Shown piece after piece: positions 3,745-42,652 of a DNA stretch of 64,000 nucleotides. Under the pieces are notes generated by a model. That model saw only the letters and a list, made by a program, of their open reading frames with translations, was not told where the DNA came from and did not search any database. The first letter of the stretch is position 1; the number at the start of each line of letters is the position of its first letter. The DNA comes from Pseudomonadota bacterium (GTDB lineage: Bacteria > Pseudomonadota > Gammaproteobacteria > Burkholderiales > Thiobacillaceae): contig JAJZPG010000014.1 of assembly GCA_021811235.1 (NCBI GenBank), positions 5,102 to 69,101 on the forward strand. The letters run 5' to 3'. A program made the translations under genes and the position numbers.

Positions 3745-4751
3745 TGAAGGCGACCTTTCCGGATCGGTCGCCCCTGTCCGCTCCCACCACGCTTGCCGAA
3801 AGCGTCATCCAGCAGCGTGAAGCGCTGGCCAATCTCCTGCGCGAACCGCTGGCGCTGGCCGCACAGGCATGCAGCCGGTCTTGGCCCAGTCGCGCCGGCC
3901 TCAACGCCGCGCTGACGCATGCGCTGGCCGGCCTGCCGGCCTGCAAGTACCTGTATGCGCTGGATACGCGGGCGATCCAGCTGTCGGACAACGTCAGCCA
4001 CCAGGGCCTGATCGAGATCGACTACGGGCGCGACCGCTCCGACCGCCCCTACATGCGCGAGGCGGTGCCGAACCAGGGTTTCCTGCTGTCGCAGGCCTAC
4101 ATCAGCCTGCGCATGAAGCGGCCGTCGCTCACCGCGATCCAGATCGTGCGCGACGACGACGGCCGCGTGCTCGGTTTCGTCGGCGCCGACTTCGACCTGC
4201 GCGACCTGCCGATCACCGGCAAGCTGTACGACGAACCGACCTATTGGCGGCAGATCAAGGGCGACCCGGCGATCCGCGGCGCGGTGTTCCACCAGACGCG
4301 CAGCGACAGCCAGATGGACCTCAACATCGACACCGTGCTCGGCGTGATGGAGGAACTGATGACCGATCGCGGAATCTTCCACGGCAAGCTGCACTTTTCC
4401 AGCAGCCGCGCAACCATCTGGCTGGTCGACGACCCGTATTACTACCGGCTGCTCGACATCGACGCGCTGACCGACCCCGACACCTGCCTCACCTACCCCC
4501 GCCGCCCCTACCCGAACACAGCCGCGGTGCCGAAGGACAAGATCCGTCCGGTGCTGGACAGCCTGCGCGCGCTGCGCTTCATGGACGAGACCTTCTATCT
4601 GCGCGCCGGCTCGCTCAACATCTTCAACGGCATGGTCGGCCTCACCTTCTCGTGCGACGGCTCGCACTACCTGCCGTGGGACGAGTTTCTCTCCAAGGGC
4701 TACGATTTCTGGGCCCCCGTCAATCTGGGCGGGCAAAGCTGCCCGGTCTGA
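3741..4751 (+). CDS. Soluble PDC/Cache-like sensor-domain protein
   Basis: YLYALD...DRSDRPY...SQAYIS....PSLTAIQIVRDDDGRVLGFVGADF resembles a PDC/Cache fold; ATGA overlap with the HAD gene; no TM helix. Confidence 0.6.
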   Translation: MMKATFPDRSPLSAPTTLAESVIQQREALANLLREPLALAAQACSRSWPSRAGLNAALTHALAGLPACKYLYALDTRAIQLSDNVSHQGLIEIDYGRDRSDRPYMREAVPNQGFLLSQAYISLRMKRPSLTAIQIVRDDDGRVLGFVGADFDLRDLPITGKLYDEPTYWRQIKGDPAIRGAVFHQTRSDSQMDLNIDTVLGVMEELMTDRGIFHGKLHFSSSRATIWLVDDPYYYRLLDIDALTDPDTCLTYPRRPYPNTAAVPKDKIRPVLDSLRALRFMDETFYLRAGSLNIFNGMVGLTFSCDGSHYLPWDEFLSKGYDFWAPVNLGGQSCPV

Positions 4752-4833: not shown

Positions 4834-5676
4834 TCAGCCGCGGGGTGTGCGCCGGGCCCTCAGGCGCAAACCGACCAAGCCCAGGCCCACAAGCAGCATC
4901 GCCCACTCGCCCGGTTCCGGAACGGAGGCCACCGCCAGCGTATCGCCCTGCGCAAGCGTGAGGTCGAAGGTGGCCGTGTTGTAGAAATCCGAGGTGCCGC
5001 TGTTGCCGCCCGCGCCGGTCAGAAGTAGCGCGCCGATATAGAAGGGCGTGTCGTAGGTGAAGCCGAAGCTGCCGGTGAAGCTCAGGTCGATCGTCTTGTC
5101 GGTGGTCACCGGGACGGGGAGGCCGTTCACATACGTGATCTCGGGCACGCTATCGATATGGCTGGCCAGCACCTGGGCGCCGTTCTGCCCGCCATAGATG
5201 GCGAGCTGGTCGGCCAGCCATGCCTCGGCATTGCCGGCGCTCAGCGTGGTGAAGTCGATGTCGAAGCTGGCCGGCAAGGTCGTCGAAATCGCCAGCACAT
5301 AGCCCACGCCCGCGCTTGCAAGGCCGGAGGCGGAAAGGTAGCCGTCGAGCGCCGCGGAGAAGCTTGCGCTGCCGGCACCGGTCCCGCCGCTGATGGTGTA
5401 GCGGTCCCACCACAGGCTGCCGGCATAGGCGAGGGTATTGGACGTCGTGCCGCTGGTGGCCTGGTTGATGCCGTAGTCGGTCACCGCACCGGCCGAGTAG
5501 CCGGTTCCGCTCACGCTGACCGGGGAATTGTCGTAGGCCCATTGGGTGGTGGCATTCCACGCCCCCGCTGCGGATATCAGCCCATAGTCGGGAAGTGCGG
5601 CCGCAGCCGAAGACGCCTGGAAAACCAGTATGCCGGCCAGCACCGCACCGGCTACGCCGGGATGTGACGTTTTCAT
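4834..5676 (-). CDS. PEP-CTERM sorting-domain surface protein
   Basis: N-terminal signal peptide, Ser/Gly/Thr-rich body, C-terminal VPEPGEWAMLLVGLGLVGLRLRARR. Confidence 0.92.
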   Translation of the reverse strand: MKTSHPGVAGAVLAGILVFQASSAAAALPDYGLISAAGAWNATTQWAYDNSPVSVSGTGYSAGAVTDYGINQATSGTTSNTLAYAGSLWWDRYTISGGTGAGSASFSAALDGYLSASGLASAGVGYVLAISTTLPASFDIDFTTLSAGNAEAWLADQLAIYGGQNGAQVLASHIDSVPEITYVNGLPVPVTTDKTIDLSFTGSFGFTYDTPFYIGALLLTGAGGNSGTSDFYNTATFDLTLAQGDTLAVASVPEPGEWAMLLVGLGLVGLRLRARRTPRG

Positions 5677-5723
5677 CGTTTCTCCTCCTGTATTTTTATC
5701 GTGCAGCGCACGGGGCGAATTGG

Positions 5724-5740
5724 AGCAAAAAACAGTCCGA
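5724..5740 (-). promoter_or_regulatory. sigma54-type -24/-12 site for the PEP-CTERM gene
   Basis: Minus strand TCGGACTGTTTTTTGCT = GG-N10-GC with TTGCT at -12, 48 bp upstream of the ATG. Confidence 0.55.
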
Positions 5741-5958
5741 ATTCTTAGCCGATTGTTTATAAATGGTATTTATGCACCACGTCAACAGGATTCAATAATT
5801 TTGCAAAGAAATCCGACGCAGCGCCTGGCCGATTCCGGTTTGCCATGCCGGCACGTCAAAAAATCCGGCGCGTCCGTTCAACGACGGGCGGCCTCTGCAA
5901 CCGCCTCTCCCAGGCGCGCCCTGCGAGCGGATCGGACAAACCGCTCATGCGCCCAGGG

Positions 5959-6588: not shown

Positions 6589-7151
6589 TGCTCACCGCGA
6601 TCGGCGTGATGGTCGCCATCGCGGTCGTGACCGGCCTCGTGCTCGGCTGGTCGGCGATCCGCTTCAAGGTCGAAGGCAACCCGCTGGCGGAAAAGATCGA
6701 CGCCATCCTGCCGCAGACGCAATGCGGCCAGTGTGGCTTCCCTGGCTGCAAGCCCTACGCCGAGGCGATCGCCAAGGGCGAGGCCGACATCAACCAGTGC
6801 CCGCCCGGCGGCGAGGAAGGCGTGAAGAAACTCGCTGAACTGCTGGGCGTGGAGCCCAAGCCGCTCGACGAGGCCCACGGCACGCCCAAGCCCAAATCGG
6901 TCGCCTTCATCGACGAAAACACCTGCATCGGCTGCACCCTGTGCATCCAGGCCTGCCCGGTCGACGCGATTTCAGGCGCAGCCAAGCAGATGCACACCAT
7001 CATCGCCGCCGAATGCACCGGCTGCGAACTGTGCCTGCCGCCGTGCCCGGTCGATTGCATCACCATGGTGCCGATCGCCGAAGACCTGCCGCACTGGAAA
7101 TGGAAGCATCCGGTGGTGATGCTGAAGCAGGTCGAGGAGGAGCACGCATGA
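6588..7151 (+). CDS. rnfB: Rnf/Rsx subunit B (Fe-S)
   Basis: [18 protein letters not shown], two CxxCxxCxxxCP ferredoxin motifs; TAATG coupling to rnfA. Confidence 0.95.
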
Positions 7152-8812
7152 GCCGCGAACTCTTCAAGTTCAAGGGCGGCGTGCACCCGCCCGGGCACAA
7201 GTCCGAATCGAATTCGCGCCCGATCCATGCCGCGCCGTTGCCGAAGAAGCTGGTCATCCCGCTGCGCCAGCACATCGGCAACCCGGCCAAGCCGGTGGTC
7301 GAGGTCGGCGAGCGGGTGAAGAAGGGCCAGCTGATCGGCGAAGCCGACGGCTACATCTCCTGCGCGGTCCACGCGTCGAGTTCGGGCACGGTCACCGCCA
7401 TCGACATGCAGACCATGCCGCACGCCTCCGGCCTGCCCGACCTCTGCATCACGATCGAGACCGACGGCCGCGACGAATGGATCGCCCACGCGCCGCTCGA
7501 CTATCGGGCGATGGTCCCCGCCGAGCTGCGCATGCGGCTGCGCGACATGGGCATCGCCGGCCTTGGCGGCGCGGTCTTCCCCAGCGCGGTCAAGCTCGAC
7601 CCCGGTGCCGCGCAAGCCTGCCCCACCCTCATCATCAACGGCGGCGAATGCGAGCCGTGGATCACCTGCGACGACGTGCTGATGCGTCATCGCGCCGACG
7701 AGATCCTGCAGGGCGTGACGGTGATGCGCCATCTCCTGGGCAGCACCGAGATCCTGGTCGGCATCGAGGACAACAAGCCGGAAGCCGTCGCCGCGATGCA
7801 GGCGGCTGCGGCCAAGATGGATTTCGCGGTGGAAGTCGTCGCGGTGCCGGCACGCTACCCTGGCGGTGGCGCCAAGCAGATGATCGAAACGCTCACCGGC
7901 AAGCAGGTGCCGTCCGGCAAGCTCTCCACCGACATCGGCATCCAGGTGTTCAACGTCGGCACCACCTATGCGCTCGCGCGTGCGGTGCATCACGGCGAGC
8001 CGCTGATCTCGCGCCTGGTCACCGTCACCGGCCACGTGTTGCGCCCGCAGAATTTCGAGGTGCTGATCGGCACGCCGATGCACACGCTGATCACCTTGGC
8101 CGGCGACCGCGACGGCACCACCGGCGTGCTGATGGGCGGGCCGATGATGGGCGTGCCGATGCCCGACCTCGAGGTACCGGTGGTCAAGGCGACCAACTGC
8201 ATCCTGGTCAAATCGAACGAACTGTTCCCGCCGCTGCCCAGGGCGCTGCCGTGCATCCGCTGCACCCGCTGCGCCGACGCCTGTCCGGCCGAGCTGCAGC
8301 CGCAGGAGCTGTTCCGTTTCGCCAAGGCGGGCGACTTCGGCCGCGCGCAGGAATACCACCTGTTTGACTGCATCGAATGCGGCTGCTGCAGCTACGTCTG
8401 CCCCAGCCACATTCCGCTGGTCGATTACTACCGCTACGCCAAGGGCGAAATCTGGGCACGCGAAAAGGAAAAACGCGCCGCCGACCTGGCGCGCGAACGC
8501 CACGAATTCCGCCTGTTCCGCCTCGAGCGCGAGAAGAAGGAAAAGGCCGAGAAGCTCGCCGCCAAGGCGCAGGCCAAACGTGCCGAACTCGCCGCGGATC
8601 CCTCGGCATCCGGCGCCCCGGACGCCGACGCCAAGAAGGCGCTGATCGCCGCCGCGCTGGCGCGCGCGCAAGCGAAAAAGGCCGAGGTCGCGCCGAAGAA
8701 CGTCGACCACCTGACGCCCGAGCAGCAGCACTCGATCGAGGAGATCGAGGCGCGCCGGGCTAAAATCCGCGAACTGGCACACCAGCCGCTGGAATCCGAA
8801 GAGAAGCCCTAA
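7148..8812 (+). CDS. rnfC: Rnf/Rsx subunit C
   Basis: [54 protein letters not shown]. Confidence 0.95.
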
Positions 8813-40117: not shown

Positions 40118-41044
40118 CTGAACGCTTCCACCAAACTCCTGCTGCTCGGCCTCGCTGCGCCCACATCGATCGCGCTCGCCCTGCTGGCCGGCGCGCTGCC
40201 CGCCGACCGCGAACTAGCGATGCAGATTCTCACCGAACTGCGCGGTCCTCGCGTCGCAGCCGCCTTCGCCTGCGGCGGCCTGCTGGCGCTCGCCGGCGCG
40301 CTGATGCAGACCCTGTTCCGCAACCCGCTCGCCGAGCCCTACCTGCTCGGCGTCTCCGGCGGCGCGGGCCTCCTGGCGCTGCTCGGCATGGCGGCAGGGC
40401 TGGCGTGGCCCTGGATCTCCCTGCTCGCCTTCGCCGGCAGCCTGCTCGCGCTCGGCCTTGCCGCCGCATTGGGCGGCCGCATGCTGGCACGCGACCACAC
40501 CCCGCTCCTGCTCGCCGGCGTCATGCTCGCCGCCGGCTTCGGCGCGCTGATCGCGCTGGTATTGAGCGTCGCGCCGGCCGAGCGCCTGCCCGGCATGCTG
40601 TTCTTCCTGATGGGCGACCTCGCCTGGACCGGCAACGCGCCGCTTCTCCTGGCCGCGCTGGGGCTTGCCATCGCCGCCGCGCTGGCGCTGTCGCGCCGGC
40701 TCGACGTGCTGCAGCTGTCGCCGCTCAAGGCCGCGTCGCTCGGCGTCGCCGTCGCCCCCACGCGCTGGACGCTGTTCGGGCTGGCCGGCGCCTGCACCTC
40801 ATTGGTGGTGGCGCAGGCCGGCAGCATCGGCTTCGTCGGCCTGATGGTGCCGCACGCGTTGAGGAAGCTCGGCTTTACCGGCCACCGCGTCCTGCTGCCC
40901 GCCGCCGCGCTCGCCGGCGGCAGCCTCTTGGTACTCGCCGACGCGCTGGCGCGCACCGTGATCGAGCCGCGCGAACTGCCGGTGGGCGTGCTGACTGCGC
41001 TGCTCGGGGTGCCGATGATGTTGTGGTTGCTGCGCAGGCCATGA
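40118..41044 (+). CDS. FecCD/BtuC-family ABC permease
   Basis: LRGPRV..A...G..LA.AG..MQ.LFRNPLAEPYLLGVSGGA, GSIGFVGLMVPH, ELPVGVLT. The frame stays open upstream of ATG 40220 to CTG 40118; the start is uncertain. Confidence 0.88.
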   Translation: MNASTKLLLLGLAAPTSIALALLAGALPADRELAMQILTELRGPRVAAAFACGGLLALAGALMQTLFRNPLAEPYLLGVSGGAGLLALLGMAAGLAWPWISLLAFAGSLLALGLAAALGGRMLARDHTPLLLAGVMLAAGFGALIALVLSVAPAERLPGMLFFLMGDLAWTGNAPLLLAALGLAIAAALALSRRLDVLQLSPLKAASLGVAVAPTRWTLFGLAGACTSLVVAQAGSIGFVGLMVPHALRKLGFTGHRVLLPAAALAGGSLLVLADALARTVIEPRELPVGVLTALLGVPMMLWLLRRP

Positions 41045-41045
41045 G

Positions 41046-41913
41046 ATGACAGATGCCGCAGCAGAACTACTGTCTAATTTTCGTTAGGCGTCTTGAATTT
41101 TCTGGGCTCACACTCAATGACGATAGAGCGAAAAAAACTACTGCAACAAGAGCCGCGTCTCATTGAGAGGTATGTGCGCTTGCAAATGCACAGGAACGCC
41201 AAACGGGCATCTCGGTTCATCATGCGGCGAGTGCTTACGCTCAAAGAGAAGGAAAGAGAAAGAGCTATCGCGAACACTCTTGCTGAGGTTGCGAAGCAGG
41301 CAGCAAAAAGTCGGAGGTATAAATTTGAGTCATCAGCCGCCCTTTTCAACCTCGCCCTGTTCTTTCTTATTGCCGATAGAGATATTCAAGCCGTAAAGAT
41401 TGACGCACTTACACATCCAGACCCCTGGAAGCGTCAGCTTTGTGCCCGAATTATTCTCCTGACAATTCATGAACTCGACATGGACAAAGTGGCCGGAGGA
41501 AAATTACGAGCTGCGCTTGCGAATGCGGGGGTTTCTGAGGAAGCAAAACGTCAAGCTACGCAAGCATTGCGGTCCATTCGTAGTTCGCAGCAGAAAGCGC
41601 AAAAGCAGTTCGTTATTCTACGGAACGCTACTATTGCACATAGAGACCCGGACGCTCTCCTACAGTACCGTTCAATAACGCAAATCGATGAGATCGAAGT
41701 ACTTCGAATTGCCAGCGATTTCTATGATGGCACCCGTTTGTTCCTTGACGTTCTACCGAACCTAGTGCTCCAAGCGGGCGCGTGGTCTGGACTCCTTAAC
41801 CAATTAAGGGCTCGCTCGAACATGAATGCCGAGGAGCCCAATGTATAAATTCGATCAACACAAGCCACACCCAACATTGCAGGGAGCTTGGTGCATAACC
41901 CCCACTAACAACT
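41046..41913. mobile_element. 868-bp AT-rich insert bounded by a 9-bp direct repeat
   Basis: GGCCATGAG at 41037-41045 and 41914-41922. G+C is 25/60 and 31/60 in two sampled lines versus 43/60 in the flank. No transposase or terminal inverted repeats. Confidence 0.75.
41117..41848 (+). CDS. Hypothetical helical protein with a HEPN-like RNATIAH motif
   Basis: Single long ORF filling the insert (alternative TTG start at 41093); R-N-x3-A-H at 41621-41641. Confidence 0.65.
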   Translation: MTIERKKLLQQEPRLIERYVRLQMHRNAKRASRFIMRRVLTLKEKERERAIANTLAEVAKQAAKSRRYKFESSAALFNLALFFLIADRDIQAVKIDALTHPDPWKRQLCARIILLTIHELDMDKVAGGKLRAALANAGVSEEAKRQATQALRSIRSSQQKAQKQFVILRNATIAHRDPDALLQYRSITQIDEIEVLRIASDFYDGTRLFLDVLPNLVLQAGAWSGLLNQLRARSNMNAEEPNV

Positions 41914-41917
41914 GGCC

Positions 41918-42652
41918 ATGAGCCTGACCACCCAACAACTCTCCCTCCGCACCGGCACCCGCGCCTTGGTCGACACCCTCGACCTCGCGCTCGAACCCGG
42001 CGAAGTCCTCGGCATCCTCGGTGCCAACGGCGCCGGCAAGTCGACGCTGCTGACGGTGCTGGCCGGCCTCGCGCGGCCTGCGCAGGGGCAGGTCTTGCTT
42101 GACGGCCAATCGCTCGCCGACCTGCCGCCGCTCACCCGCGCGCAGCACATCGGCCTACTGCCACAGGGCGACGAAGGCGGCTTCTTTGGCAGCGTCGCCG
42201 ACTTCGTCGCGCTCGGGCATTTCCCCTTCAGTGGGCCAGTGCCTGATCTCGCCCCGCACCTCGCCGCCTGGGAACTCACCGATCTCGCTAACCGCCCGCT
42301 CGACACCCTCTCCGGTGGCGAGCGCCAGCGCGCACGGCTGGCGCAGCTGGCGGTGCAGCAGCCGCGCATCGCGCTGCTCGACGAGCCGCTGACCCATCTC
42401 GACCCGGCGCATCAGGCGCGCCTCTTGGCCTGGGCGCGCAGCGAGGCCGACGCCGGGAGGACGGTGGTACTGACGCTGCACGACCCCAACTGGGCCGCCT
42501 GCCACTGCGACCGCCTGCTGTTCCTGCACGGCGACGGCCGCTGGCAGCTGGGCACGCCTGCCGGGCTGCTGACGCCGGACTCGCTCGAAGCCCTGTATGG
42601 CCCCGGAACGGCTGCGCTGTGGCGGCAGGGCGGCCGGGGCCAGACTGTATAA
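41918..42652 (+). CDS. FecE/BtuD-family ABC ATP-binding protein
   Basis: GANGAGKS, LSGGERQR, LLDEP, LHD. Confidence 0.92.
   Translation: MSLTTQQLSLRTGTRALVDTLDLALEPGEVLGILGANGAGKSTLLTVLAGLARPAQGQVLLDGQSLADLPPLTRAQHIGLLPQGDEGGFFGSVADFVALGHFPFSGPVPDLAPHLAAWELTDLANRPLDTLSGGERQRARLAQLAVQQPRIALLDEPLTHLDPAHQARLLAWARSEADAGRTVVLTLHDPNWAACHCDRLLFLHGDGRWQLGTPAGLLTPDSLEALYGPGTAALWRQGGRGQTV

Follow-up and report, generated by a model that had tools for sequence, protein, structure and literature searches.

A probable fixed integron cassette, carrying a gene with a HEPN-like motif, in a conserved landing pad between two transporter genes of a Thiobacillus-like bacterium

How can a foreign gene come to lie at the stop/start overlap of two transporter genes and leave both of them intact? 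The question is raised by contig JAJZPG010000014.1 (assembly GCA_021811235.1), of which a stretch of 64,000 nt (positions 5,102 to 69,101, here called the window) was analysed. In the window the genes of a FecCD-family ABC permease and of an ABC transporter ATPase are separated by 868 bp of DNA whose GC content is 0.48-0.51 (49% overall), against 0.70-0.75 in the flanks and about 72% in the host. This insert contains a single open reading frame (ORF), running from the ATG at 41117 to the stop codon at 41848 and coding for a 243-aa protein with the sequence LRNATIAH. It lies between two copies of the 9-bp sequence GGCCATGAG; the left copy contains the permease stop codon (TGA, 41042-41044) and the right copy the start codon of the ATPase (ATG, 41918). 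(Table 1, the numbers are positions in the window unless another locus is named.) In our reading the insert is probably a fixed ('fossil') integron cassette residing in an older landing pad at the permease/ATPase overlap. The mechanism of mobility is a known one, that of an integron cassette outside an integron, and the novelty that remains is the conserved pad with its duplication at an operon overlap.

The structural part of the original prediction for this locus, made from the letters of the window, was borne out. The 9-bp repeat is present at both ends of the insert, the drop in GC content and the single ORF mark the insert as foreign, the permease and ATPase ORFs are complete, and neither in the insert nor adjoining it was a transposase, an integrase or a long terminal inverted repeat found. 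The window contains exactly two copies of GGCCATGAG. By count alone this is unremarkable, 0.94 copies being expected per window and at least two having been present in 22 of 100 shuffled sequences; what matters is the placement of the copies, not their number. Since contigs spanning the insert and both junctions with 0 differences were found in independent metagenomes from different studies (X1, 971 nt; X4, 1087 nt), the filled allele is not an assembly artefact.

Evidence on the origin of the insert came from the relatives of its gene. In Beta- and Gammaproteobacteria the protein has 378 homologs, each about 243 aa long, and the family comprises 429 cluster representatives at 50% identity. 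A G|TTGGGC or GTTAGGC sequence recurs 15-60 nt before the start of the homologous genes, and a site opening with GCCCAAC or GCCTAAC and closing with GTTRRRY recurs after the stop. The sites of the second kind form an attC family with the structure GCCCAAC-CCATCATTCCACCGG...AAGCCGCG...GGTGAATTCAAAC-GTTRRRY. Cassette features were counted in 50 non-redundant homolog loci and at random positions in the same loci. Of the 50 loci, 17 have a GTTRRRY core site in the 80 nt before the start (6.1% of random positions), 15 have an inverse core RYYYAAC at the stop (4.0%), and 5 have all three cassette features together, compared with none of 2320 random positions. The bottom strand of the attC site in locus L088 folds into a typical attC shape (-18.1 kcal/mol, z-score -3.98), and this site is directly followed by the next ORF.

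A scanner of our own, which combined R''/R' complementarity with minimum free energy pairing, gave 22 attC matches in the window and 10-13 in shuffled sequences. Because the scanner did not discriminate in DNA of 70% GC and was too strict for genuine sites, it gave way to a covariance model trained on eight homolog attC sites. This model found additional sites outside its training set. One of the matches, L007:3915-3984, is the 3' end of an HNH cargo that occupies the same permease/ATPase junction in a sister genome, and it ends exactly where the right arm of the landing pad (see below) starts. In L112, L133, L141 and L163 the family member is adjacent to, and divergent from, a homolog of the integron integrase IntI (46-52% identity, found with an IntI1 query whose sequence may be inexact), which corresponds to the classical integron layout with the homolog as a proximal cassette. 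Judged from these sequence comparisons, the family is shown to circulate as integron cassettes. The earlier view that the gene had been moved by an unknown mechanism has to be replaced accordingly: the GTTAGGC core and the R''-like ACCCAAC of the window copy, the attC sites of the homologs and the intI genes beside four of them all indicate an integron-type cassette.

Other settings of the family were also recorded. In L091 (4950-5710) a member with a shortened ORF lies between prfA and prmC in the same orientation, and its end overlaps prmC as ATGA. The member in L088 (4920-7440) follows a pyrC-like dihydroorotase gene, again in the same orientation, and precedes a second cassette-like ORF of 349 aa. 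The homolog in L001 (Methylomonas sp. EFPC1) has an upstream GTTAGGC and is located between fkbP and cheD; inverted repeats of about 260 bp on either side (5540-5800 and 6950-7210) give it the appearance of a unit flanked by miniature inverted-repeat transposable elements (MITEs).

The window copy has retained only some of the cassette parts. Its GTTAGGC lies 34 nt upstream of the cargo ATG, and the R''-like ACCCAAC is found 20 nt past the cargo stop. Since the homologs have an attC site where the window copy has only the R'' box, the window copy is a decayed cassette. The sequence further downstream, ...GCATAAC|CCCCACTAACAACT, appears to resemble an attC site of the L029 type minus the hairpin. 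The pad now holds fossils, and the window cassette is fixed. No promoter or terminator for the cargo gene was predicted in the insert; the only promoter-like match (41475-41504) is inside the ORF, downstream of its start, and there was no terminator-like match on the coding strand. RNA was represented by one 206-nt contig from one soil metatranscriptome, which is too weak for a claim of expression. Nothing relevant came from Rfam, either with the whole window at gathering thresholds or with the insert at E<=10.

Scanning the ATPase protein against reference genomes yielded about 50 orthologous loci and identified the host as Thiobacillus-like. In 18-19 sister loci of Thiobacillus/Hydrogenophilales the junction is empty, with the permease stop and the ATPase start overlapping as ATGA, as had been anticipated from the window. 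An example is L052, whose permease is 97% identical and whose empty site reads ...TTGCGCAGGCC|ATGAGGCTC. Many sister genomes carry other DNA at the junction, and the window's cargo gene was present at this junction in none of the other sampled genomes. PADLOC returned only noise with the sister cargo.

The window, L007, L029, L048, L015 and, in part, L008 and L010 have two conserved arms in common. The left arm comes after the permease stop (GTTGGCAGATGCAaCCgGGTTATGCGGCAGAAtTGcCGTCtAATTAAC|GTTAG) and the right arm before the ATPase ATG (AAC|GTTGGCCCTCACTAACAACTTGGCC). The sequences between the arms are unrelated, similarity ending on the left at the ...AAC|GTTAG core and resuming on the right at AAC|GTTGGCC. 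The duplicated 9-mer is identical in L008 and agrees in 8 of its 9 bases in L007; recognisable versions of it are present in L029, L048 and L015. Because the same arms and the same or nearly the same duplication surround different cargo in these six sister loci (L007, L008, L029, L048, L015 and L010), the duplication belongs to the pad and predates the gene with the HEPN-like motif. It is thus not the footprint of this gene's insertion, as which it had originally been taken. Exact and near-exact patterns as well as nhmmer, applied to the window and the collected loci, detected copies of the arms only at this junction. The left arm was not seen to fold as an attC site and forms only a small hairpin (z -2.6). 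Partial duplications of the permease end are present around other types of insert: CAAGCC(C/A)TG in L037, G(G/A)CC(G/A)TG in L047 and CTTGAG in L014.

Table 1. Features of the permease/ATPase junction in the window, and inserts at the same junction in sister loci
Locus	Position	Strand	Feature	Basis or remark
Window	40220..41044	+	FecCD-family ABC permease, intact	Pfam FecCD E 9.5e-69; orthologs in sister loci 84-97% identical
Window	41037..41045	+	9-bp direct repeat GGCCATGAG, left copy: last permease codons, stop, one further base	
Window	41046..41083	+	Left arm (LE) of pad, about 11 nt shorter than in sister loci, with small hairpin	LE-profile nhmmer match 41048-41088, E 5.8e-9
Window	41084..41090	+	GTTAGGC, integron core (GTTRRRY), putative cassette 5' boundary	Similarity to sister loci ends here
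Window	41091..41116	+	Putative cassette 5' leader GTCTTGAAT..., related to homolog-cassette leader AGCTTGAAT	No promoter predicted
Window	41117..41848	+	Cargo ORF, 243 aa, all-alpha, uncharacterised family	
Window	41621..41641	+	Codons R169-H175 (RNATIAH), R-x5-H motif within LRNxTIAHRD	Alignment
Window	41869..41875	+	ACCCAAC, R''-like inverse core (RYYYAAC), putative sole remnant of the cassette's own attC	Aligns with GCCCAAC opening the homolog attC
Window	41876..41899	+	ATTGCAGGGAGCTTGGTGCATAAC, R''-like GCATAAC at its end as in L029; probable remnant of the 3' end of an earlier cassette	By-eye comparison with L029
Window	41900..41913	+	Right arm (RE) of pad, CCCCACTAACAACT, without the GTTGG core of sister loci	Alignment; weak nhmmer match 41896-41916
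Window	41914..41922	+	Right copy of GGCCATGAG, supplies ATPase start codon	
Window	41918..42652	+	ABC transporter ATPase, intact	Pfam ABC_tran E 1.5e-27
L007			Junction insert, 650 bp	Weak HNH match
L008			Junction insert, 714 bp	Cargo without assignment
L029			Junction insert, 682 bp	P-loop kinase-like
L048			Junction insert, 590 bp	Cargo without assignment
L015	1945-4001		Junction insert, 2052 bp	vapBC, diverged pseudo-permease fragment, GIY-YIG-like ORF
L047	3223-4001		Junction insert	vapBC
L035	252-1017		Junction insert	Phd-like antitoxin and PIN
L050	1264-2119		Junction insert	PIN and ribbon-helix-helix antitoxin
L031	111-904		Junction insert	TumE and helix-turn-helix protein
L043			Junction insert	HiPIP-like protein, by eye, no Pfam scan
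L021, L038, L053			Larger junction inserts	

Further variation was observed at the junction. In L014 there is only a remnant of a ribbon-helix-helix antitoxin gene. Thirteen genomes (L011, L012, L016, L017, L020, L021, L023, L025, L028, L038, L040, L043 and L049) have, about 60 nt upstream of the ATPase match, an alternative ATPase N-terminus (MESIAPR...), in front of which the sequence GTGCTGCTATGCTCGG is conserved. To the left of GTGCTGCTATGCTCGG there are variable larger inserts, in which PEP-CTERM proteins, a HiPIP-like protein and a gamma-glutamyltranspeptidase-like ORF were recognised by eye from the translations. In these genomes the junction has become a variable islet, possibly with a new promoter. 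Short stop-to-start spacers with partial repeats of the permease end are found in L046 (5 bp, 3992-4001), L051 (11 bp, 3986-4001) and L037 (56 bp, 3941-4001), the 3' end of the last resembling the right arm (CCCACCCAAGCC); these spacers may be footprints of lost inserts. The permease itself is short in the window and in all sister loci (274 aa, matched by the Pfam profile only from position 36). No gene for a substrate-binding protein adjoins the two transporter genes in the approximately 3 kb examined on each side. Their neighbours are a cyclophilin-like ORF upstream and pcnB, folK, panB and panC downstream.

The filled allele need not be the product of a site-specific event in this genome. 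Left arm, cassette and right arm may have arrived ready-made by homologous recombination from another Thiobacillus, an alternative that we regard as a serious possibility, if somewhat short of an even chance. In a tree built from the neighbouring pcnB, the genomes with the pad are interspersed with empty ones, and the ATPase gene of the window is a mosaic: its first 150 nt or so are 90-92% identical to pad-bearing loci as against 84% to L052, and in the next 150 nt the pattern is reversed, with 93% identity to L052. Scatter and mosaic suggest that alleles have spread by homologous recombination through the flanks. Directly before its left arm, L015 carries a diverged duplicate of the permease 3' end (2672-2862, 50-56% amino-acid identity), located between the vapBC insert and the arm; this pseudo-permease fragment suggests that foreign flanking DNA came in along with the pad. 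Moreover, variant alleles co-occur in the same metagenomes. Contigs of X1 and X2 have the joints 41045->41913, 41054->41903 and 41056->41913, in which the last bases of the right arm follow directly on the end of the permease or on the opening bases of the left arm; they may derive from alleles with other cargo, from cargo-free pads or from excision footprints. However, this cargo was encountered at the junction in no other sampled genome, the differences in identity amount to about 10 nt per 150-nt interval, and the arrival of a ready-made allele accounts for the spread of alleles, not for their origin.

The second question concerns the protein. The original prediction was an HEPN RNase encoded without an antitoxin. 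The part concerning the motif stood: LRNxTIAHRD is invariant in 50 aligned homologs, and its R169 and H175 form the R-x5-H motif. Other invariant positions are the block K94-R106 and E119, D123 and K124. The neighbours of the homologs differ in every context, and no conserved partner gene was found among the homolog loci. Confirmation of the HEPN fold was not obtained, and the structure searches and the profile searches with the cargo protein itself weigh against it. The AlphaFold model is all-alpha and of good quality (pLDDT 88.7, pTM 0.80), but Foldseek gave no match at E<=0.001 (best E 0.24 in PDB and 0.31 in the viral BFVD). A PDB sequence-profile search returned 0 matches; for the cargo protein no Pfam match reached its threshold, and PADLOC, NCBIfam and PHROGs gave no match. 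In favour of HEPN, Pfam HEPN_AbiU2 matched 4 of 50 members, all below threshold (best E 0.012). When bridging to HEPN_AbiU2 was attempted through ten remote representatives in Pfam, a single sub-threshold match was obtained, with the relative P0229 (E 8e-4, 19.3 bits against a cutoff of 26.8) in residues 143-185, i.e. in its C-terminal part. A homolog search started from P0229 found six relatives, none of them annotated. A borderline match to Pfam Con-6 (24.8 bits, cutoff 25; residues 124-153, window positions 41486-41575) is likely the source of the name 'Con-6 family protein' used by NCBI for homologs, and probably reflects local resemblance rather than homology.

The protein may therefore not be a HEPN nuclease at all, and its R-x5-H may serve another role such as nucleic-acid or membrane binding or a Con-6-like stress function. 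We think this possible, though less likely than not. It would agree with the failure of a confident model to match any structure library, with HEPN profile matches that all stay below threshold while Con-6 almost reaches its cutoff, and with the absence of a partner antitoxin, which is unusual for a HEPN toxin. Against it, RNxxxAH and the RD after it do not vary over about 50% sequence divergence, AbiU2 is the only recurrent and functionally meaningful profile match and is C-terminal in P0229, and there are HEPN AbiU2 cassettes of a single gene for which a defence phenotype is known. From the conserved motif and the sub-threshold profile matches we infer that an HEPN-like abortive-infection RNase is the most likely function, although it attracts a little less than half of our confidence.

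With HEPN RNases (AbiU2, AbiD/F, HEPN-MNT toxins, Cas13/Csm6 domains) the cargo protein shares the all-alpha composition, the invariant R-x5-H and the N after the R; the cargo gene is mobile and has defence-like neighbours. It differs from them in having no MNT or other antitoxin partner, no HEPN fold detectable by Foldseek, and an additional basic helix of about 55 residues at the N-terminus. Another parallel is the V. mimicus integron cassette HNPBCG_15845, whose product has a HEPN AbiU2 domain and is reported to protect against T4 and T7 (2026 preprint, bioRxiv 10.64898/2026.03.17.712381). Integron cassettes have been recognised as phage-defence libraries (bacteriophage resistance integron cassettes, BRiCs; Kieffer et al. 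10.1101/2024.07.02.601719). The claim of an undescribed single-gene anti-phage module is consequently not supported, integron cassettes being already described as a source of defence genes, a HEPN AbiU2 cassette included. The window gene agrees with BRiCs and HNPBCG_15845 in being a single-gene cassette with an AbiU2-like HEPN signature and a proposed role in abortive-infection defence. It differs from HNPBCG_15845 in that the AbiU2 match of its family is sub-threshold and the family is known from sequence alone, the two being compared by description only.

Several results speak against interpreting the insert as an integron cassette. A foldable attC site was not found in the window (z +1.5 and +0.3), nor was a covariance-model attC match; no IntI-like sequence was detected in the 64-kb window or in the sister loci, and the target, GGCCATGAGCC, lacks a GWT attG motif. 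Folding is also poor at the 3' ends of the sister cargo (z -1.2 to +0.8), so that any ongoing exchange of cassettes at the pad is hypothetical. Target duplications are not made by integrase recombination, which leaves the origin of the 9-bp repeat and of the arms unexplained. They may go back to an old transposition-like event, to an aberrant integrase event or to selection for a restored stop and start codon. At its outer ends the pad has a short inverted repeat (AGTTGGCA...TGCCAACT in L015), of about 8 bp and imperfect in most loci, whose bases read like a cassette 5' TTRRRY and an R''.

The arms and the duplication could be a small, so far undescribed docking site that was set into the stop/start overlap of an operon, has no integrase of its own, bears an attI/attC-like core and is mobile or spread by recombination. 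We consider this unlikely. If true, such a site would let cassettes be captured and expressed from housekeeping transcripts while the host genes remain unharmed. Bearing on this possibility, members of the same family also lie flush at two further operon junctions, namely prfA|prmC (L091) and behind the pyrC-like gene (L088).

Still less probable is a novel single-gene element, autonomous or mobilised in trans, whose insertion at a staggered cut, as in transposition, produced the 9-bp target-site duplication. A target duplication of 9 bp is typical of several insertion sequence (IS) families, and the exact direct repeats around foreign DNA together with the short inverted outermost termini are indeed what IS elements or MITEs with a 9-bp duplication display. 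However, the duplication and the arms are common to loci with unrelated cargo and hence older than the gene, the inverted termini match over only about 8 bp, no transposase accompanies the pad, and the arms have no other copies in the window or the collected loci. Besides, the cargo gene bears the hallmarks of a cassette and, unlike in IS elements and MITEs, different cargo is present between the arms, with the change at core-site boundaries. That the junction is a homing site into whose empty alleles the cargo genes copy themselves as free-standing nucleases is highly improbable: weak HNH (L007) and GIY-YIG (L015) matches in sister cargo and the precise position between conserved genes would fit, but these nuclease matches are sub-threshold, the precision is accounted for by cassette boundaries, HEPN proteins are RNases and not DNA endonucleases, and a homing-endonuclease hotspot was rejected because of the heterogeneity of the cargo, which otherwise consists of a P-loop kinase-like protein, unassigned proteins and toxin-antitoxin pairs.

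Cassettes outside integrons are known. IntI inserts cassettes at non-classical genomic attG sites, cassettes inserted at attG are expressed when they are near resident promoters, and single attC sites lacking integrase (SALINs) are common (Loot et al., bioRxiv 10.1101/2022.09.11.507474). The insert resembles SALINs, clusters of attC sites lacking integrase (CALINs) and the products of attC x attG recombination in being a promoterless single ORF between a GTTRRRY core and an attC-derived 3' end, in having no integrase nearby, in occupying a chromosomal site that can be read from a resident promoter, and in having relatives in true integrons. It is unlike them in that its attC site is reduced to the R'' box and its target is devoid of the GWT motif. 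Moreover, it is inserted in a conserved pad with a 9-bp duplication, which is not an integrase product, and this one junction has been reused by several cassettes across species.

Under the interpretation of the insert as a fixed integron cassette, an integron integrase acting in trans would have placed the circular cassette at the G|TT core of the pad; instead of this, or in addition, the filled allele may have been brought in by homologous recombination via the transporter genes. The attC site would later have decayed, probably by collapse of its hairpin, which would have left the cassette immobile. The cargo gene is presumably transcribed by read-through from the operon, much as a cassette is transcribed from Pc. 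Its product would most likely be an HEPN-like (AbiU2-like) RNase using R169 and H175, and its role may be that of a single-gene defence of the abortive-infection or toxin type.

The gene in the window, itself uncharacterised, belongs to a widespread cassette-borne family whose members have a HEPN-like motif. The locus represents a natural and well-resolved case in which an integron cassette was taken up outside an integron and became part of a housekeeping operon. Across Thiobacillus the junction is available in empty, filled and differently filled form, which complements the laboratory evidence for insertion at genomic attG sites, and the 9-bp duplication and the arms could indicate a cassette-docking step outside current integron models. 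The integron-borne family of approximately 430 clusters, with its invariant R-x5-H, is a cheap candidate for assays of single-gene phage defence or toxicity.

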